This document shows, piece by piece, positions 1-63,053 of a stretch of 64,000 nt of DNA. The stretch is from a virus (lineage: Duplodnaviria > Heunggongvirae > Uroviricota > Caudoviricetes). The first letter of the stretch is position 1; every line of letters starts with the position of its first letter. Position numbers and translations under genes: made by a program. The notes beneath the pieces were generated by a model. It did no database searches and was not told where the DNA came from. It saw nothing but the letters and a program-made list of their open reading frames with translations. The DNA is taken from IMG/VR virus record IMGVR_UViG_3300034196_000151, one strand, 5' to 3'.

Positions 1-189
1 ATCTGAGTGCGACTCATTGAGATTATTAGCTAAACTAACAATATCAATAAAAGTAGGATCAGCGGTTTTAGTGGCGGCTTGATAATAAGTTACTGCCACA
101 ATGAGAATCATTGCAAAGAGAGCAACAACCATTAGGGGTTCAATTAATGGAACATCGCCAGCCATTTTTTTTATATTTTTAATATTCAT
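1..189 (-). CDS. hypothetical membrane-anchored protein (3' end runs off window)
   Basis: ATG at 189 preceded by AAGGTG SD; N-terminal hydrophobic segment GDVPLIEPLMVVALFAMILIVAV. Confidence 0.4.
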   Translation of the reverse strand, partial: MNIKNIKKMAGDVPLIEPLMVVALFAMILIVAVTYYQAATKTADPTFIDIVSLANNLNESHSD

Positions 190-1672: not shown

Positions 1673-1885
1673 TTAATGCAGGTTTTCGATGACTCGACCG
1701 AACAAATAATGATGAGCATCCACTCGACACTTTTCATGTTGTTCTGGCGTCATTTTAGCAATGTATTCGTCAGCTTTATTGATATTTTCTTTCCATTTCT
1801 CAACGTCAATAGTGACAGGTTCAGCAATCACAAAAGGAGTCTGAGGTTGACTGAGATAATCCAGTATCATTGGATGAATGTTCAT
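1673..1885 (-). CDS. hypothetical protein
   Basis: 70-aa ORF; terminator hairpin (ccctcttatgagggg) at 1644-1668 downstream. Confidence 0.45.
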   Translation of the reverse strand: MNIHPMILDYLSQPQTPFVIAEPVTIDVEKWKENINKADEYIAKMTPEQHEKCRVDAHHYLFGRVIENLH

Positions 1886-1930: not shown

Positions 1931-2551
1931 TTACTGGTCAATTTTTTTTGTATAGGTAAGTACATCAAAGCATTGAATTCCAGCCAACGTGCAATCAGAT
2001 TTAGTTACAGGTGTTTTTAAATCATTTTCCATGTAGTATTCATGACTAACATGGCTCATCATGTCAACAATAGCTGCAGTATTGGGCCTGCCAACACGAA
2101 AGCTGGTGCTTTGTGTGAAGGAGTCGGGTAGGAACAATCCTTTTGAATAAGGTTGTGTGGATAAATTATTATTGAAAACAAAATCAATTCTTTTCGAGTA
2201 TATTTTAATGTATTCAACAGCAGTATTAACATAACTAATTTCCAGAAAAGCACCAGAAACAAGATCACCATCAAAAGTAACACAGTAGTCTTGATTACGT
2301 GAACAATTTAACGTTTTGATTACATTGTTTTGAATATTTAATGCTTCATTATAGTTAATGATATGAACACCATCAACTCCCTTAGACAAGCCTAAATGAT
2401 GAAGGAAGGTTAAATAGTTTAAATCATCAACAACTGTTTTTCTTTTGAGTTCATATGAAAACCACCAACCCACAATAGCAATCATAATTAAAATACATAT
2501 AACAATTATATATTCACTTTTTGAAATGTTTTTATTCATTTTTATAACCAA
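1931..2551 (-). CDS. N-terminally anchored protein, paralog of 3281..3871
   Basis: 206 aa; N-terminal TM helix; shared motifs NYL(T/G)F..H(L/H)(G/S)LSKG and C-terminal DCT.AG..CF..L.YT with 3281..3871; AT-rich. Confidence 0.5.
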   Translation of the reverse strand: MVIKMNKNISKSEYIIVICILIMIAIVGWWFSYELKRKTVVDDLNYLTFLHHLGLSKGVDGVHIINYNEALNIQNNVIKTLNCSRNQDYCVTFDGDLVSGAFLEISYVNTAVEYIKIYSKRIDFVFNNNLSTQPYSKGLFLPDSFTQSTSFRVGRPNTAAIVDMMSHVSHEYYMENDLKTPVTKSDCTLAGIQCFDVLTYTKKIDQ

Positions 2552-3147
2552 TTTTTGTAGTGAATAACAAATAAGCAGTCAGACTGAGCGTTTAAACAGT
2601 CGTCTTTTGTAATTATCTTTTTTATATCAGAAGACCTAGCATAATAACTTTTAAGGTTGGAGCGTATTCTTAACAATTCATCAATTTTATTTTTGGGCAA
2701 ACTTGAGTTATAATGTTGTGTATTGTTAAATAGCTCCGTTGGATAGTTTTTTACACCTGATAGATAAGGAGAATATAAATAAACATCAGTAAATGAAAAC
2801 TTATTGTCCATAATGGTTGATGAGTATTGTATTAACGCCGTGGTTGAATCGGGATAGTCTTGTGGCATGGTTAACAGACAAGAATAACGAGTACAATCGG
2901 TATCTTTTATCAACTCTTGTTGAAATTCTGCAAATTTATATTTATCCATTGAAACGGTTGCCTGATTGGATGTTGAGTTAGCAACATTTTCAATAAATGA
3001 AAGCACACTCAGTGATCTATCATTACCGGCCATTGCATTATAGATAGCATAAGCACCCATAATACAAGTTAATGGAAGTAGAACCAACATAACAACCATC
3101 GTTTCGAGTAAAGTAAATCCCTTCTGTTTGCTTGAATTAAAACGCAT
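2542..3147 (-). CDS. type IV pilin-like / pseudopilin protein (prepilin N-terminal domain)
   Basis: N-terminus MRFNSSKQKGFTLLETMVVMLVLL carries the canonical prepilin cleavage/methylation motif G|FTLLE followed by a hydrophobic helix. Confidence 0.6.
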   Translation of the reverse strand: MRFNSSKQKGFTLLETMVVMLVLLPLTCIMGAYAIYNAMAGNDRSLSVLSFIENVANSTSNQATVSMDKYKFAEFQQELIKDTDCTRYSCLLTMPQDYPDSTTALIQYSSTIMDNKFSFTDVYLYSPYLSGVKNYPTELFNNTQHYNSSLPKNKIDELLRIRSNLKSYYARSSDIKKIITKDDCLNAQSDCLFVIHYKNWL

Positions 3148-3280
3148 ATCGGTCCCCTTAAAATATTACGGACATAATATTTGATGGCAAAAAAAAACAT
3201 TGTCCGTTTTTAAATCATAATTGTAGTCTTTTATTTGATTTTGTCAACATCATCCGGTCTTAAATTAGTCAATAAAATGA

Positions 3281-3871
3281 CTACAATGTGTAGTGTAAAG
3301 CTTCAAAACATGCCACACCAGCGGGAGTGCAGTCATTTTCACTTACCAAATGAGTGAGATTATGTTCTAAATAATATTCATAAGTTATCTTTTTTTGGAC
3401 GCTTAATGGATAAACATAAGAAGGATTTTCCTTCATCGAAAATTCACTCACAGAAAAATTATCGGAATAAAAAGAAGACGTACTATTATTATCAATAAAT
3501 ATAGAGTTAAAATTAGGTGCGTAAACCTTAATATCGTTTACAATACCCTTATCATAACTAACTGAAACAAAAGAACCCACTGGAAGCTCCTTTTTCAATG
3601 GTGAACAATAATTATTATTACAATCTAATGTTGATATTACAGATTGTTGAAGATTTAATGCTTCTTTTTGGTTATAAACAACAACTCCATTACCTTTAGA
3701 TAAACTTAAATGATAAATAAAACCTAAGTAATTAGTTTTTTCTTCAATATCTTTTTCTCGCAATGTTCCATAAAGTGTTAATGTTAAAATAACAATAGCT
3801 GAAAGAACAATGATAGTCATTAGCAAATCAATTGAAAGAAATCCACCGTTTTTAATTTTTTTTATACTCAT
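3281..3871 (-). CDS. pilin-like N-terminally anchored protein (degenerate GGFLSID prepilin-like motif)
   Basis: 196 aa; MSIKKIKNGGFLSIDLLMTIIVLSAIVIL; paralog of 1931..2551. Confidence 0.5.
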   Translation of the reverse strand: MSIKKIKNGGFLSIDLLMTIIVLSAIVILTLTLYGTLREKDIEEKTNYLGFIYHLSLSKGNGVVVYNQKEALNLQQSVISTLDCNNNYCSPLKKELPVGSFVSVSYDKGIVNDIKVYAPNFNSIFIDNNSTSSFYSDNFSVSEFSMKENPSYVYPLSVQKKITYEYYLEHNLTHLVSENDCTPAGVACFEALHYTL

Positions 3872-3956
3872 AAACCACCTAATAATTCGATAATAACAAC
3901 TATAACTTAGATTGAAATTAAATCAATTATTAAATGATAAAATCCCATAATATAAT

Positions 3957-3989
3957 AAAAAAAAGAGCCGCGAAGGCTCTTTTATAGTT
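3957..3989 (-). terminator. intrinsic terminator (UUCG loop on minus strand)
   Basis: aaaaaaaaGAGCCgcgaaGGCTCtttt; on the minus strand GAGCC-UUCG-CGGCUC followed by a U-run. Confidence 0.6.
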
Positions 3990-5890: not shown

Positions 5891-6097
5891 TTATTTTTTA
5901 TCCGATAAAGGATTCGCCATATCCCAGAATACAAACTTTTGCTGAGTCATGACACAATAAGATGTCGACTCTTGCTTCAAACAAGTATCCATTCGTTCTT
6001 TTGAAGCTATCAACAAAACAACAACGAAGGCTAAGAAAACTAAACAAAGCAAGCCCATACCAACAATTGTTAAGATTTTTTTCATCAATGGTTTCAT
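5891..6097 (-). CDS. small membrane protein (tandem paralog)
   Basis: 68 aa, TM helix, conserved C-terminal C..C..TQ(Q/R)(K/D)FV(F/L)WD...PLS(D/E)KK shared with 6094..6294. Confidence 0.5.
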   Translation of the reverse strand: MKPLMKKILTIVGMGLLCLVFLAFVVVLLIASKERMDTCLKQESTSYCVMTQQKFVFWDMANPLSDKK

Positions 6098-6294
6098 GAT
6101 TTTTTCTCACTCAAAGGATAAATAGAATCCCAAAGCACAAAGTCCCGTTGAGTAAAACTGCAATACATGAAAGAATTAACAGCAATACACTCAGAAAAGC
6201 GGTTGGATTTAACGACTACTGTGAAGATAATGAAGGAAATGAGAGCAAGGCACAAAATAATAGTGCCAGCGGCTTTGATTTTTTCCATAGACAC
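6094..6294 (-). CDS. small membrane protein (tandem paralog)
   Basis: 66 aa; stop/start ATGA overlap with the downstream paralog suggests translational coupling. Confidence 0.5.
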   Translation of the reverse strand: MSMEKIKAAGTIILCLALISFIIFTVVVKSNRFSECIAVNSFMYCSFTQRDFVLWDSIYPLSEKKS

Positions 6295-12419: not shown

Positions 12420-12902
12420 TTATTTGTCATAACGATAATAGAATGTATAATAACCTGAACCACTTGCACCGACATGGCAACCATATTTGCGACCATCAAT
12501 AGGATCAGCAGGAATAGTGGAAACTGTGTCAAATTTTAGAGAATCATAATTAGCAATGATTTGTTTACAAACATCCAGTGAAAGTAATGATGAGTCTTGT
12601 ATTTTAACTAAGGATTCGTCCGCATCAATTACAAAATCAACACTTTCATAGTTAGGAACTTGTGTTAAATAGGCAGCATCTTTAAGTTTACTCACATTAT
12701 CAACACTCATGCCAGTCATGGAAACACCTTCATTTTTTGCAAATAGAGCCGCCGTAGCAATAGTATTTGCAGTGTTTAATAAGTAAGCAGTTTTTGTATA
12801 AATAGAATTGTTATTATAGGCATAAAAACCATAAGCAATTGTTGCAACTGATAAAGCAGCCATAAGAGCAATAGAAATGATCGAGATAATAAGTGAAAAC
12901 AT
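12420..12902 (-). CDS. pilin-like N-terminally anchored protein
   Basis: ACGGAGAATAC SD before ATG at 12902; N-terminus MFSLIISIISIALMAALSVATIAYG resembles a mature pilin helix. Confidence 0.5.
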   Translation of the reverse strand: MFSLIISIISIALMAALSVATIAYGFYAYNNNSIYTKTAYLLNTANTIATAALFAKNEGVSMTGMSVDNVSKLKDAAYLTQVPNYESVDFVIDADESLVKIQDSSLLSLDVCKQIIANYDSLKFDTVSTIPADPIDGRKYGCHVGASGSGYYTFYYRYDK

Positions 12903-13095
12903 GTATTCTCCGTTATTAATATTAACTTCCAAGTTAGTCTAACACCAAACTCTTAATTAATAATTTACCTCGGAGTACAACGATGTCAATTGTTTTTTAT
13001 ACAAGTTAATATATCAAAGTGTCATCATCTATATATAAAAATAAATATATAAACAAAAAAGACAGCCTTAGCTGTCTTCTTTTTAATCCTGCTGA

Positions 13096-22807: not shown

Positions 22808-22884
22808 TGGTGGGACTTATAGGACTTGAACCTATGACCTGCCGATTATGAGTCGGACGCTCTAACCAACTGAGCTAAAGTCCC
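22808..22884 (-). tRNA. tRNA-Met/Ile (anticodon CAU)
   Basis: Minus-strand GGGACTTTAGCTCAGTTGGTTAGAGCGTCCGACTCATAATCGGCAGGTCATAGGTTCAAGTCCTATAAGTCCCACCA: 7-bp acceptor, D and T arms, anticodon loop CTCATAA, encoded CCA. Confidence 0.85.
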
Positions 22885-23173: not shown

Positions 23174-23258
23174 TGGTGCCCGGTGCCGGACTCGAACCGG
23201 CACTCCTTGCGGAAAGGGATTTTAAGTCCCTCGTGTCTACCAATTTCACCAACCGGGC
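23174..23258 (-). tRNA. tRNA-Leu (anticodon UAA), type II with long variable arm
   Basis: Minus-strand GCCCGGTTGGTGAAATTGGTAGACACGAGGGACTTAAAATCCCTTTCCGCAAGGAGTGCCGGTTCGAGTCCGGCACCGGGCACCA; loop CTTAAAA; encoded CCA. Confidence 0.85.
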
Positions 23259-46138: not shown

Positions 46139-47260
46139 TTACTCGGGGATTTCGACTTGTTTACGAGCAAACACCATGATAGCCGCTTGCTTGTAGTCGA
46201 TTTCAGCACCGGAATACTTGCTAATCAAGACATGCAGCAAGAGCGGTGCAACTTCCTTCGCTTTACGGGCATAATCACCACGTTCCAACCCTTTATGTTC
46301 TTCGTGGAAAGATTCCACAGTGCGAACAAGGTAATGATAGCTTTTACGGGCATAGTCTTCGACTTCATCCAAACGAGCCAGAATTTCGGCCAGTGGGAAG
46401 TTATCGCTGTGTGTCCGGTAGTGATACAGGGAACGAATTTCATCCAGAATTTCATGAAGGGTCGCTTCATAAATCACCTGACGTTCTTTGGAACGGTCTT
46501 GAATGTTGATAACCGCCGACATTTTCAGGTAAGGAATGGTCTTGACTTTGTACATATCAGGGCCGATTTCAATCACATAACCTTCGATATCTGGGTCATT
46601 AACGTTGATTTCGTTAACGGGGATACGCTTCACCAGATGGGCAGCAATGACCGGATATTCTGCGGCAAATTCTGCCGAACGAATGTCCACATAAGCCCCT
46701 GTGTTCATGTCGCGGGCTTTCAACACATGAACTTCGTAGTCAGTGTATTCGATGAACACACGGTTTTTCGGCGTGGTCAGTTCCAAGTCAACCGAAACAC
46801 CTGTGCGGGTCAGCCGCTCAACGTCTGAGTGCAATTCTGGACTGATAGACTGTTCAACAAGGCTGTAATCAGCAAACGTAGGCTTCTTTTTGCTCTTGTA
46901 GTAAATCGTATCATTGATCGGAGAAATATAGCTGGTGAGCAACGAGCCATCCGGTTTCAGATAAGCGTGGTCGGCTTCTTCTGGCTTCACCTTTTGCGTT
47001 TCAGGGGTTTCGCCCAAGGAAAAGAATTTCTGCATAGGCAATGCCACCAGCAAAGGTTCAGTGCCACCCATGTAGAACATCACACCACGGCAATCTTTCG
47101 CACCCGGAAGCTTGAATTCGGAGTGTTTCGGAATGTCATAGTTGAAGACACGGTAAGTGCCGCCGTCAACTGCCGACACTTCATCACGGTATTTGAAAGA
47201 ACCCGGATTCGTGACCAACAGGTTCATGAGTTGTGCATACAGTTCTTGTTGATAGGTCAT
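46139..47260 (-). CDS. rnlA: RNA ligase 1 (Rnl1/RnlA family)
   Basis: 373 aa (T4 Rnl1 is 374 aa); adenylylation motif AYLKPDGSL (K-x-DG); GTGGAGA SD; TATAAT at ~47294. Confidence 0.7.
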   Translation of the reverse strand: MTYQQELYAQLMNLLVTNPGSFKYRDEVSAVDGGTYRVFNYDIPKHSEFKLPGAKDCRGVMFYMGGTEPLLVALPMQKFFSLGETPETQKVKPEEADHAYLKPDGSLLTSYISPINDTIYYKSKKKPTFADYSLVEQSISPELHSDVERLTRTGVSVDLELTTPKNRVFIEYTDYEVHVLKARDMNTGAYVDIRSAEFAAEYPVIAAHLVKRIPVNEINVNDPDIEGYVIEIGPDMYKVKTIPYLKMSAVINIQDRSKERQVIYEATLHEILDEIRSLYHYRTHSDNFPLAEILARLDEVEDYARKSYHYLVRTVESFHEEHKGLERGDYARKAKEVAPLLLHVLISKYSGAEIDYKQAAIMVFARKQVEIPE

Positions 47261-47316
47261 GTAAATCTCCACATTAAGCATATTTGAATGTATTATATCA
47301 AAAACTGATTTTTAAT

Positions 47317-48228: not shown

Positions 48229-49356
48229 CTAGGCTTCGACAGGTGGCGACAAATCGCCCAACTCAATCTGTTCCAAAGACCAGTCAACCAGATGGTTTTT
48301 AGCGTAATACGACAGGTAGTCGTTTTTCATGCCGCGAAGCAAGCACATTACAAAGCCAAAATGTGGATGGCCTTTAAGTTTGATCGCCGCCGACTTGAAG
48401 TCAAGCCCTTGGAACTCTGCCGCAATGTCGCTCACTTCTTTATCCAACGCTTCAACCGAAGATTTGATAGCGTCATTGATACGATAGATGTTGCTCAAAT
48501 CAGCCGTTGGGGAGTTCAACGACAAGTAAGCAATGTAGTCGTCCAACTTTTCTTCAACCACTAAGCGAGCAATATCACGCTCACGAACAAAACTAACCGC
48601 ATGGTGCAAATTCATATACCATTTAGTTTTGATTTTGATCATTTCACCGTTAGCGAACTGAATAACGTAGCCTTCAATTCCTTCAACCGTGTTCAACGAC
48701 TTCAACAGCGAAGCCAAATCAAATTCTTCACCAAACAGCGGCTTGTTGACCGGAATATCAAACAACAACGCCAGTTGCTCTTTTTCAGCAGGCATCAAGT
48801 AATCACCTGTGATGTTGTGGCGAACGTGAAGAAGTGTCATGTTTTCTTCGTCATAACGCAAAACGATACGATGTTTTGGCGAAGTGAATTCAAAAATAGG
48901 GGTCAGTTGTGCCTGAGAGCAATATTTAGTGAACTCGTAGTATTTCTGGTTGTTCGATACAAAGCCTTCTGCAGAAACAGCCACATCCGATTTGAAGGAC
49001 TTCTTGGACTTGGCAAAGAATTCACCGTTGAACAGCCCTGTGGTGATCATGGAACCATCCATTTTATCAAACCCGGCCACCATCTTGTTCCAATCCAAAA
49101 CGGCTGGCTGGACTTCTGCACGCTCTGCAAGGTTGAAGAACTTGTGCAACGGACGGGACAAGATTTTACCATCGTCGGCAAACGTAATACCGCGAGCTTC
49201 TTTTTCGACCGGAGTGTTAAAAGAATCACCATTGCTGATGTTGTAGCAAACGATGTTCGCCCCGTTATCCTGCTTGTTAACAGAGATATAGGCACGATCT
49301 TTGATATGGGGAAGCATATCATCAAGGGTTTCAATACGCGGGAAGATGCTAGACAT
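48229..49356 (-). CDS. RNA ligase 1 family, second paralog
   Basis: 375 aa; FDKMDGSM (K-x-DG) and shared ARG(I/V)(T/M)F, P(L/M)(H/Q)KFF, KSKK blocks with 46139..47260. Confidence 0.65.
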   Translation of the reverse strand: MSSIFPRIETLDDMLPHIKDRAYISVNKQDNGANIVCYNISNGDSFNTPVEKEARGITFADDGKILSRPLHKFFNLAERAEVQPAVLDWNKMVAGFDKMDGSMITTGLFNGEFFAKSKKSFKSDVAVSAEGFVSNNQKYYEFTKYCSQAQLTPIFEFTSPKHRIVLRYDEENMTLLHVRHNITGDYLMPAEKEQLALLFDIPVNKPLFGEEFDLASLLKSLNTVEGIEGYVIQFANGEMIKIKTKWYMNLHHAVSFVRERDIARLVVEEKLDDYIAYLSLNSPTADLSNIYRINDAIKSSVEALDKEVSDIAAEFQGLDFKSAAIKLKGHPHFGFVMCLLRGMKNDYLSYYAKNHLVDWSLEQIELGDLSPPVEA

Positions 49357-61259: not shown

Positions 61260-62996
61260 CTACCCCGCCCTGAAGGACGAAGTTTCTTGGGTTTTTGAAA
61301 CCTTTCCCAATCGCTGACGTTCATTGTCAACTTCAAACAAAGCGGTCAGCTTCACTCGCACGGTTTCTCTTTTCATTTTGGATGGACTGTACTGCCCATC
61401 TTTTAACAGGTGAAAAGTGAGACGAAGAACTTCTTCGGTTATTCTGTTTCTTACATTTTTTGCTGCATTCTGATCAGCGTCTTCTTTATGACCACAAAAA
61501 TTACAATGAAAACTTCTTCCTTGTCTGACTGTGTGTTCCACACAGTGACACTTTGAACAGGTTTTCGATGTATAACTTGGGGTGGTCAAATGAACTCGAA
61601 TGCCTTTATTATTCGCTTGTTCTTGAAACCAATCTTTAATACTTGATAATCTCAATAAGCGAATAAGCTTTGAATATTTTATATTTAATGTTTCATCTTT
61701 GATGAAAGAAGCTTTACATTGTGAAAGATTGAGATCTTCTAATACAATGTCGGTTATTCCATCATCTATTAGGCTTTTTAATGTCTTTGATATAAGTTCT
61801 TTAAAGTGAAATTCAACACCACCTAATAGCTTATTAAATTGGGTTTGTTCATAGGTTGTTAATTGTTTGAACCCTTTCTTTTCAAAAGATTGTAGAGACT
61901 TTACAACCTTTTGAAGATATTCACGATTATAATCAATGGCTATTTCTCGATCATGAAAAGCAATGGTGCAAAAGTTTGAAGCAACATTAATATCAATACC
62001 GCACACAGCTTTTTTATCAATGATACTGTCTTTTTCTAATGGTTTGAAGTATTCTTTTTCATCTTCATAGGTTAAGCCAATTTCAATTCTATTTTTTCGA
62101 TTAAGACGAACCGTATGAATAGCGTCAAGATCAAAATCATTAATATCGCCATGATATTTAGGATTGAAAGCCAATGGAACATGGATATGTTCCTTCCCAA
62201 TCCTAAAATTATACCAATATTTGTACTCATTTGTTTCATCAACATGAAGATAAGAATGTTTAGTTTGTCCGATTTTAGGTATTTTCATATAAGACCCAGT
62301 TGAAAACACAATCGGTGATTTCATGGATTGTAACATTCGTATCTGTTTTCTAAGTAAAAGTGCTTTAATTCTATCCCAAAGGAAAACTTCAACACCATCT
62401 GTCGTAAAATGTCTTTTAGTTCTTAATGCATTAAGTGTTGAATTAAAATTCTCTATGTCTTTAATTTTTTTTGGATTCTCTTCACTTTCTTTATGTGCTT
62501 TTAAAACAGAATCAAGCATAGAAGAATCAACATAGATTAACCAATTTGACAAATTGGTTAATGCAGTAGTTTTGTGAATCACTTCTGTTTTTTTAATATC
62601 ACCTTTTACTGCAATAACTTCACCCACACTGTTTGTAACTTTTCGCTTATATCGAGTGACTTTATATTCTTTTTGAATGACAAACTTTTGATTGTCGGTG
62701 AGTTTATCTACCCAATTAGAGTAAAAATCAATAATTTGTTGGTACATTTTTTGAACTTCCCAAGAATACAATTCAGGGCAATTGTGTTGTTTCGCATGGG
62801 AAATAAGTGTATTTTTAGAAGTCGAAGAAAGAAGTGAAAGTTTATGTTCAAAGACATATTGAGAAATTTCATTTTTAAGGGATTTAACAAAAGAAAAATG
62901 CTCAACAAAACGCTCTGTCTTCTTCGAATTGACAATCGAAGAAGCAGAAATACGTTTAGTTTTAATCTTTTTTTTGTCAGAGCTACCGTAAGCCAT
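61260..62996 (-). CDS. tnpB: TnpB/Cas12-like RuvC plus zinc-finger protein (IS200/IS605 OrfB superfamily; putative RNA-guided nuclease)
   Basis: 578 aa from ATG 62996 (AGGAAA SD); RuvC-I AVCGIDINV, RuvC-II ITDIVLEDLNL, Zn ribbon CSKCHC...CNFCGH followed by RuvC-III EDADQNAAKN; ~31% GC; the track's 12 extra N-terminal residues are a TTG read-through of the promoter. Confidence 0.75.
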   Translation of the reverse strand: MAYGSSDKKKIKTKRISASSIVNSKKTERFVEHFSFVKSLKNEISQYVFEHKLSLLSSTSKNTLISHAKQHNCPELYSWEVQKMYQQIIDFYSNWVDKLTDNQKFVIQKEYKVTRYKRKVTNSVGEVIAVKGDIKKTEVIHKTTALTNLSNWLIYVDSSMLDSVLKAHKESEENPKKIKDIENFNSTLNALRTKRHFTTDGVEVFLWDRIKALLLRKQIRMLQSMKSPIVFSTGSYMKIPKIGQTKHSYLHVDETNEYKYWYNFRIGKEHIHVPLAFNPKYHGDINDFDLDAIHTVRLNRKNRIEIGLTYEDEKEYFKPLEKDSIIDKKAVCGIDINVASNFCTIAFHDREIAIDYNREYLQKVVKSLQSFEKKGFKQLTTYEQTQFNKLLGGVEFHFKELISKTLKSLIDDGITDIVLEDLNLSQCKASFIKDETLNIKYSKLIRLLRLSSIKDWFQEQANNKGIRVHLTTPSYTSKTCSKCHCVEHTVRQGRSFHCNFCGHKEDADQNAAKNVRNRITEEVLRLTFHLLKDGQYSPSKMKRETVRVKLTALFEVDNERQRLGKVSKTQETSSFRAG

Positions 62997-63015
62997 TAGT
63001 TTTCCTATAAAAAGT

Positions 63016-63053
63016 CTTGCTAAATTATACAATGTATTCGATAATAAAGCAAG
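63016..63053 (-). promoter_or_regulatory. tnpB promoter TTGCTT-17-(TG)TATAAT flanked by a 13-bp imperfect inverted repeat
   Basis: -10 at 63024-63029, -35 at 63047-63052; arms tCTTGCTaaATTAT (63015-63028) and ATAATaaAGCAAGc (63041-63054). Confidence 0.5.

Follow-up and report, generated by a model that had tools for sequence, protein, structure and literature searches.

A 64,000-nucleotide stretch of viral DNA (Duplodnaviria; Heunggongvirae; Uroviricota; Caudoviricetes; IMG/VR record IMGVR_UViG_3300034196_000151), referred to here at its full length as the window, encodes toward its left edge what sequence comparisons identify as a single family of paralogous proteins, A, B, C and D. They appear to couple a type IV prepilin-like N-terminus, ranging from canonical to degenerate, to a globular domain that is predicted to be novel. 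We tentatively interpret these proteins as lineage-specific, host-processed surrogate or decoy pilins that would act in receptor masking or superinfection exclusion, and we give this interpretation somewhat less than an even chance of being correct. The four genes are as follows (residue numbers throughout are those of A; the bar in a motif follows the glycine at -1):

Paralog A, 3281..3871, minus strand: open reading frame (ORF) of 196 residues, with the leader MSIKKIKNG-G|FLSID followed by a hydrophobic helix and a predicted periplasmic domain.
Paralog B, 2542..3147, minus strand: ORF of 201 residues, with the canonical class III signal MRFNSSKQKG|FTLLE.
Paralog C, 1931..2539, minus strand: ORF of 202 residues counted from the ATG at 2539, with the N-terminus MNKNISKSEY; an alternative start is the TTG at 2551.
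Paralog D, 1..189, minus strand: the first 63 codons only, cut by the left edge of the window, with the N-terminus MNIKNIKKMAG-D-VPLIEP.

The paralogous genes and their N-terminal signals

The first-pass annotation of this DNA had singled out three ORFs, at 1931-2551, 2542-3147 and 3281-3871, as a cluster of pilin-like or pseudopilin genes, and all three are present, on the minus strand. Its suggestion that A and C are paralogs of each other is borne out (35% identity, E 1e-35), and the relationship extends beyond what had been claimed to B, which aligns over its full length with both of them at 18-20% identity (E 6e-6 and 2e-4) and with the cysteines aligned. The truncated gene at the left edge, whose translation starts MNIKNIKKMAGDVPLIEP, had been credited with a similar N-terminal helix and proved to be more closely connected than that. 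Its full-length orthologs, which are 224-225 residues long (an example being L002:12074-12748), contain the invariant cysteine pairs of the family and match the family hidden Markov model (HMM) with E-values of 1e-66 to 1e-73. We accordingly assign the gene at 1-189, by sequence criteria, to a fourth paralog group, D (P0034 and P0041-P0053), and take it to encode the N-terminal part of such a protein. A search of the window proteins with the same HMM recovered no member beyond A-D. In the case of C the start codon is most likely the ATG at 2539 rather than the TTG at 2551, because it directly follows the stop codon of B, as is also seen in the ortholog P0002; the orthologs of C begin with MNKN or MSANK. 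The AT-richness that had been noted for these genes (about 30% guanine plus cytosine, GC) was likewise recovered, with GC contents of 28.3% in A, 32.5% in B, 31.2% in C and 34.4% in D, whereas the window as a whole has 38.8% and the neighboring and interleaved genes have 38-52%; at third codon positions (GC3) the four paralogs have 18-29%.

The N-terminal signal is most clearly recognizable in B, MRFNSSKQKG|FTLLETMVVMLVLL, which upholds the prepilin-type motif originally pointed out in this protein: it scores above the curated cut-offs of both the Pfam model PF07963 N_methyl (25.9 versus 21.2 bits) and the NCBIfam model TIGR02532 (21.5 versus 16.3). The likeness of B to pilins spans about 25 N-terminal residues and takes in the Y-x-x-Y region of its helix. 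When the window was scanned with a relaxed class III motif, A and B were the only matches, and 20 shuffles gave none; the pattern of class III motifs in the window is beyond chance. A and all of its orthologs conform to the pattern K-x-[GA]-G|F-L-S-[IL]-D, with Gly(-1), Phe(+1) and an Asp at +5. Among the distant members uncovered by profile searches the corresponding segments read AG|TSLID, AG|VSLLE, LG|TVAVE, SG|FCIID and KG|IIGID, and the residue at +1 varies between them (G|T, G|V, G|L, G|I or G|F). Gly(-1) together with an acidic residue at +5 occurs in every member of the A and B groups that was sampled, and the majority of the divergent relatives have the pair as well. Like those of type IVa pilins and pseudopilins, the leaders are rich in Lys and comprise 9-13 residues, and a hydrophobic stretch is found in every member of the family. 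The first 40 codons of A evolve rapidly, with 0.5-0.95 nonsynonymous substitutions per site (dN) between lineages. Given that Gly(-1) and the acidic residue nevertheless persist, we read these two positions as being specifically constrained, i.e. as probable prepilin processing and assembly residues. The retention of a charged residue within a membrane helix is a hallmark of pilins as opposed to generic anchors.

The globular domain and the spread of the family

Downstream of the helix, an alignment of 50 sequences of the superfamily contains the invariant residues Gln75, Cys84, Cys89, Tyr106, Cys181, Cys188 and Tyr194. The cysteines are arranged in two short Cys-x4-6-Cys loops, one of them C-terminal (C84-C89 and C181-C188 in A), as is expected for periplasmic pilin-like domains; this fits an oxidized domain exposed to the periplasm, with the loops closed by putative disulfides. 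Structure prediction for A with AlphaFold2, using 50 sequences, gave five models in agreement with each other, with a predicted local distance difference test score (pLDDT) of 80.2 and a predicted template modeling score (pTM) of 0.73; the prediction for B from 28 sequences was poor (pLDDT 50.6). The model of A displays a helix at 11-56, followed by an alpha/beta domain with helices at 68-81 and 143-159 and strands at 62-67, 101-107, 110-118, 162-168, 171-176 and 188-195. The N-terminal helix, at 46 residues, has the length of a pilin helix and is far longer than is required to span a membrane. A Foldseek search with this model found no significant neighbor, either in BFVD or in the PDB, where the best E-value was 0.28, and a sequence search of the PDB gave N-terminal matches only (E 0.22-1.6); as modeled, the fold leans weakly towards a pilin-like one. 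The 150-residue globular domain is unique to the lineage.

Two word-indexed searches over 5.8 billion proteins returned 28 and 32 matches to the family, and when 1.84 billion representatives were searched exhaustively with an HMM there were 14 matches, of which 13 are of about the length of the family; the remaining and weakest one, P0039 (2690 residues, E 2.4e-4), is marginal. The matches of about family length are all metagenomic. Scans of IMG/VR and of the species representatives of GTDB found no relative of the family, and a megablast with the first 8 kb and a tblastn with B against the phage collection were both empty. By these searches the family appears confined to one phage-like lineage. 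Within it each genome has 2-4 copies: D and an A-like gene were found in every related genome sampled, and C in some, while B is limited to the lineage of the window and a few distant B-like proteins, being absent from the related loci L001, L002, L004, L006 and L012. The orthologs of B (P0008-P0025) are 75-99% identical.

The ratios of nonsynonymous to synonymous substitution (dN/dS), 0.25-0.55 for A, 0.18-0.28 for C and 0.18-0.55 over the family, indicate that these are functional genes under purifying selection. At the same time, identity between the window and L004 is 80% for A and 62% for C, as compared with 89-96% for conserved neighbors. The protein P0011 (223 residues, encoded on a metagenome contig of 1,746 bp) is of the A type, with an additional C-terminal disulfide-loop module of the C type (...LNCLDVLHYNL-SKRITEEECTLAKNQCFDVLFYEKIDQ), pointing to recombination or fusion between adjacent paralogs. 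Taken together, the presence of 2-4 copies, a divergence exceeding that of the neighbors and the A/C hybrid would fit an accessory, conflict-driven function.

Proposed role and competing explanations

Under the interpretation as surrogate or decoy pilins, each gene would be transcribed early by the host RNA polymerase from sigma70-type promoters of its own, and yield a protein of about 200 residues with a short, Lys-rich cytoplasmic leader and an N-terminal hydrophobic helix as its inner-membrane anchor. Its N-terminus would lie inside and its C-terminus outside, which would place the alpha/beta domain in the periplasm, where disulfides would form and stabilize it. The host prepilin peptidase (PilD/GspO) would then cut after Gly(-1) in B, probably in A and possibly in D, and the acidic residue at +5 along with the pilin-like helix could allow entry into a host type IV filament pathway, candidates for which are the type IV pilus (T4P), the type II secretion pseudopilus and the competence pilus. 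There, the phage proteins might replace host (minor) pilins or jam assembly; C, having lost the cleavage site, would stay in the membrane, perhaps as a blocker that cannot be extracted. By analogy with P-FimU, a minor pilin encoded by phages, the benefit could be receptor masking or superinfection exclusion directed against pilus-dependent competitors or sibling phages. None of the 97 ORFs in the window, which covers 64 kb of a much larger replicon, matches the A24 peptidase, a type II secretion or T4P ATPase, a platform protein or a secretin, and host machinery would hence be needed.

Receptor masking or superinfection exclusion is plausible as a role because phage-encoded pilins are known to enter host type IV pili and to block competing phages. 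Prophage-encoded FimU-like minor pilins enter the Pseudomonas T4P and block phages that bind its tip (Sztanko et al., Cell Rep 2026; PMC12952977); these P-FimU proteins are minor pilins of F10-like Pseudomonas phages such as JBD68 (PMC12952977). Like P-FimU, the window family is phage-encoded, has a type IV pilin N-terminus, would depend on the machinery of the host and is diverse between related phages, and the role demonstrated for P-FimU, namely alteration of the pilus and exclusion of competitors, is the one proposed here. The two differ in that P-FimU is a recognizable homolog of the host FimU, present in single copy in temperate phages, whereas the window family has 2-4 paralogs in which the cleavage motif is lost by degrees, no detectable bacterial homolog and no match to a pilin equivalog. 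Four types of virulent phages, as well as prophages of Xylella, have further been described as encoding PilA-like proteins, with superinfection exclusion as the proposed function, some of them being N-terminal-only versions of 60 residues (PMC12952977). They too include pilin-like genes of non-temperate phages, for which exclusion through incorporation into the T4P or its inhibition was proposed; however, their similarity is to PilA, the major pilin, and amounts to about 50% identity in Xylella, while the resemblance of B is restricted to its N-terminal 25 or so residues. We also count the type IVb pilins TcpA, TcpB and CofB (PDB 8uhf, 7w63, 4qs4) among the closest known systems. In the literature searched on jumbo and huge phages we found nothing pertinent on pilins or pseudopilins, and a paper on 'virion maturation' in phage C11 was set aside as irrelevant, since it mentions the prepilin peptidase in its reference list only. 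Phage-borne pilins are thus already known, and four features, as judged from sequence, set the window family apart from them: the want of a cellular homolog, a novel globular domain, the occurrence as a set of several paralogs whose cleavage motif decays by degrees, and the residence on a giant, virulent-looking replicon.

Several observations weigh against the decoy-pilin interpretation. The curated prepilin models are passed by B only, with A, C, D and the distant members falling below threshold. A has Asp rather than Glu at +5. The D group (G-[GD]-V-[ST]-L-L-E-P) retains the Glu and alternates between GG and GD, the copy in the window being GD. C, with I-K-S-E-F, lacks Gly(-1), and it is for this reason predicted to be an uncleaved, membrane-anchored member rather than a substrate of the prepilin peptidase; most of its members keep a Glu in the aligned '+5' column. 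The A-like gene of L012 reads G|ETVIV, its acidic residue being at +1 instead of +5. The original picture of a pilin-type cluster survives for B in canonical form and for A, D and the distant relatives in a degenerate form that preserves Gly(-1) plus an acidic position at +5 or close to it, but not for C. Similarly, the pilin or pseudopilin identity holds at the level of the prepilin-type N-terminal models, and then for B; no specific NCBIfam equivalog was matched in comparisons with GspG/H, PilA, ComGC-GF, the Ppd proteins and FimU-like pilins, the best scores being 12-20 bits, over the N-terminal segment only, against cut-offs of 49-400. No bacterial pilin homolog was recognizable among the examined matches of the HMM search of 1.84 billion representatives (the sequence of P0039 excluded), and unlike P-FimU and P-PilA the family can therefore not simply substitute for an identifiable host subunit. 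Finally, that the host has a type IV pilus is an assumption.

Much of this evidence is what would be expected if the family consisted of generic bitopic periplasmic proteins, independent of pili and secretion, in which the N-terminus is vestigial and serves as a signal-anchor only. Such proteins might act in superinfection exclusion or injection blocking at the envelope, in the manner of T4 Imm and Sp, or as modulators of the envelope or of lysis. We consider this explanation, the main rival, unlikely, though it deserves serious consideration. In addition to the decay of the class III motif in C (no Gly), D (GD) and A (Asp at +5), the passing of the curated models by B only and the want of a bacterial pilin homolog, it is favored by the globular domain having no significant pilin match and by the placement of the genes among many small membrane or secreted ORFans, as is typical of phage early regions. 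However, a plain anchor requires neither Gly(-1) nor an acidic side chain around +5, and burying a charge is unfavorable; yet both residues are kept in very divergent members while the sequence of the helix turns over. Likewise, the continuation of the pilin likeness of B through the Y-x-x-Y region and the length of the helix, which is that of pilins and much beyond a membrane span, are not accounted for by a generic anchor. Imm and Sp invite comparison as small proteins of the inner membrane or periplasm, expressed early by a large virulent phage, that shield the infected cell from further phage, but the analogy is purely functional: they share neither sequence nor motif similarity with the family and are without a class III signal.

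A different possibility, which we deem improbable, is that the proteins specify a host-assembled filament or tip complex with a positive function, such as adhesion, biofilm formation, motility, DNA uptake or reception of a partner virus, as in the viral pili of SNJ2, or that the type II secretion pseudopilus is the target. Four-member sets of minor pilins and pseudopilins prime filaments, and the occurrence of up to four paralogs per genome is reminiscent of these, albeit by resemblance only. FimU-PilVWX and GspH/I/J/K are likewise sets of several pilin-like proteins with short leaders; degenerate features occur in such minor sets, and GspK-type proteins are without Glu5. These sets, however, are made up of distinct families encoded beside their own machinery, whereas A-D are paralogs sharing one novel fold, with no nearby machinery and no NCBIfam equivalog, and their variation between 2 and 4 copies implies that no complex of fixed stoichiometry is conserved. 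Moreover, no member of the family resembles a major pilin, and there is no sign in the window of lysogeny, in which a function benefiting the host would pay. The precedent for such filaments is the haloarchaeal provirus SNJ2, whose pilins PilA1 and PilA2 hijack the machinery of the host (Xiang et al., Cell Rep 2025; PMC12426801). As in SNJ2, the pilin-like genes of the window are virus-encoded, occur in tandem and would rely on host secretion and assembly machinery, but SNJ2 is an archaeal and temperate virus, and its pilins form the dominant surface filaments, whereas any filament of the window family is hypothetical, and the family belongs to a bacterial system, as indicated by Shine-Dalgarno sites, sigma70-type promoters and the Glu/Asp at +5.

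A bolder version of the decoy-pilin interpretation, to which we assign a slim chance, is that the paralogs constitute a phage-specified heteromeric pilin-like module built on a hitherto unseen globular fold, with a cleavable canonical member (B), cleavable variants (A and D) and a non-cleavable anchor (C), by which an exceptionally large (possibly megabase-scale) phage would reprogram or cap the type IV filament machinery of its host during infection. If true, this would represent a virus-evolved class of pilins with no cellular counterpart, rather than a captured host gene.

The entry of phage-encoded pilins into host pili is an anti-phage strategy that has just been shown, and the known cases are captured host subunits. 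The decoy-pilin interpretation would extend this strategy to a virulent-looking giant phage lineage with a fast-diversifying, multi-copy set of proteins whose globular domain is without a cellular relative. The natural series of signals (canonical, Asp at +5, GD and no Gly) could be used to probe the tolerance of the prepilin peptidase and the assembly platform. If the proteins do block pili or type II secretion, they would be candidate tools against pilus-dependent virulence, as well as markers of phage-versus-phage competition in environmental communities.

Expression signals, the replicon and neighboring genes

The upstream region of A contains a succession of signals, on the basis of which A is predicted to be a transcription unit of its own, in the order terminator, promoter, Shine-Dalgarno site and gene; a further promoter-like site lies upstream of B:

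3961..3983, minus strand: intrinsic terminator of the gene upstream of A, with a 9-pair stem and a T-run (scanner match).
3899..3926, minus strand: sigma70-type promoter of A, TTGATT-N16-TATAGT (scanner match).
3875-3880, minus strand: Shine-Dalgarno site of A, AGGTGG.
3220..3247, minus strand: sigma70-type promoter-like site upstream of B, TTGACA-N16-TACAAT, with 11/12 matches.

Both hexamers of the A promoter are invariant in six loci, with the spacer diverging in L002, the most distant of them, and over six loci the stem of the terminator is conserved and its loop is variable. The promoter fits early expression by the host RNA polymerase.

The phage setting assumed in the first-pass annotation receives support from the gene content of the window. 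Out of its 97 ORFs 84 are without a Pfam family, and the approximately 13 with a Pfam match include two T4 RnlA-type ligases, two HNH endonucleases, a dCMP deaminase and a NUDIX protein, as well as TnpB, Band_7, bPH and GNAT; two tRNA genes are also present. The mean gene length is 154 residues, 78% of the genes are on the same strand, and motifs resembling Shine-Dalgarno sites precede 57% of the genes, as against 14% of control positions. The nearest relative of the RNA ligase of the window is found in the Ralstonia jumbo phage RsoM2USA (43% identity), while the window as a whole has no close DNA match in the phage collection. Overall, the window has the appearance of an accessory arm belonging to a very large bacterial phage. 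A giant eukaryotic virus was considered and rejected in light of the Shine-Dalgarno frequencies, the intrinsic terminators and the sigma70-type footprint upstream of A.

Independent metagenome contigs measuring 0.32, 0.68, 0.77, 0.83, 1.07, 1.28, 1.85, 1.86 and 1.92 Mb each carry one copy of the syntenic locus, among them:

L002: JGI 3300034157 Ga0370506_000001, 1,917,244 bp, with the locus at 1.449-1.469 Mb.
L012: ENA ERZ27247443 k141_1011963, 1,281,823 bp.
L004: ENA ERZ27268020 k141_25817, 319,712 bp.

The largest phage genomes in the literature searched are of 735 kb, 841 kb and, in one preprint, about 1.03 Mb. The megabase-scale contigs may represent megabase-scale phages, a bacterial chromosome with a huge phage-like island or misassemblies. 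That the 1.9 Mb contig consists of six copies of the 320 kb contig was rejected, since the locus was reported only once on it and other assemblies measure 1.07, 1.28, 1.85 and 1.86 Mb. The contigs of 1.07-1.92 Mb from independent assemblies, with their single-copy syntenic locus and their sizes exceeding those of known phages in that literature, would permit a reading in which the pilin-like genes belong to a bacterium with a small genome, or to a giant island integrated in one, but this is very improbable given that the window and the flanks of the related loci look like phage accessory DNA in their gene length, strand bias, paucity of Pfam families, RnlA-type ligases, HNH endonucleases, dCMP deaminase and tRNAs, that no close relative was found among the GTDB species representatives, that there is no adjacent pilus machinery and that the locus is also found on a contig of 320 kb.

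Close to the pilin-like genes, a 70-residue gene at 1673-1885 (minus strand) is located downstream of C in the window and between A and C in the relatives. Its orthologs (L004:10686-10895 and L002:9656-9865) show 33% identity to it, compared with over 90% for the flanking genes. The shift in position and the low identity suggest local rearrangement and mosaicism around the pilin-like genes. A 69-residue gene between A and C in the relatives was considered as a possible truncated B and rejected, being the ortholog of this ORF.

The ORF at 12420-12932 (minus strand; 160-170 residues, 32.7% GC) had also been listed, as 12420..12902, among the pilin-like candidates, and here the proposal did not hold. 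It has a hydrophobic N-terminus (MFSLIISIISIALMAAL...), but the relaxed scan found no class III motif in it, and its comparison with the family gave a BLASTP E-value of 0.09 over the helix only and an hhalign probability of 0.9%. Together with the tests against curated models, these results rule it out as a member. It is without any family match and strain-specific, with no ortholog in the related genomes, L004 and L006 having an ORF of 36-37 residues instead.

The two T4 RnlA-type RNA ligases are paralogs, encoded about 1 kb apart on the minus strand at 46139-47281 and 48229-49356 (phrog_562, E 1e-43 and 2e-72), and genes for tRNA-Met(CAT) and tRNA-Leu(TAA) lie at 22808-22884 and 23174-23258, also on the minus strand; ligases and tRNAs could together form a tRNA-repair or counter-defence module. 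The ORF at 61260-63032 (minus strand) encodes a TnpB/IS605 OrfB-like protein of 590 residues, unusually long for a TnpB, with a Cas12f1-like TNB domain, and two relatives have an inserted IS605 OrfB of 382 residues (L012:4465-5613 and L013:1305-2453), placed upstream of the A-like gene at a distance of a few genes. These insertions suggest that the accessory arm is being remodeled by mobile elements. Lastly, adjacent genes at 5891-6097 and 6094-6294 (minus strand) encode small paralogs of 68 and 66 residues, each with a single N-terminal membrane helix and with the shared tail C...YC...F[VL][FL]WD...PLS[DE]KK, which appear to be another duplicated family of small envelope proteins in this early-type region.

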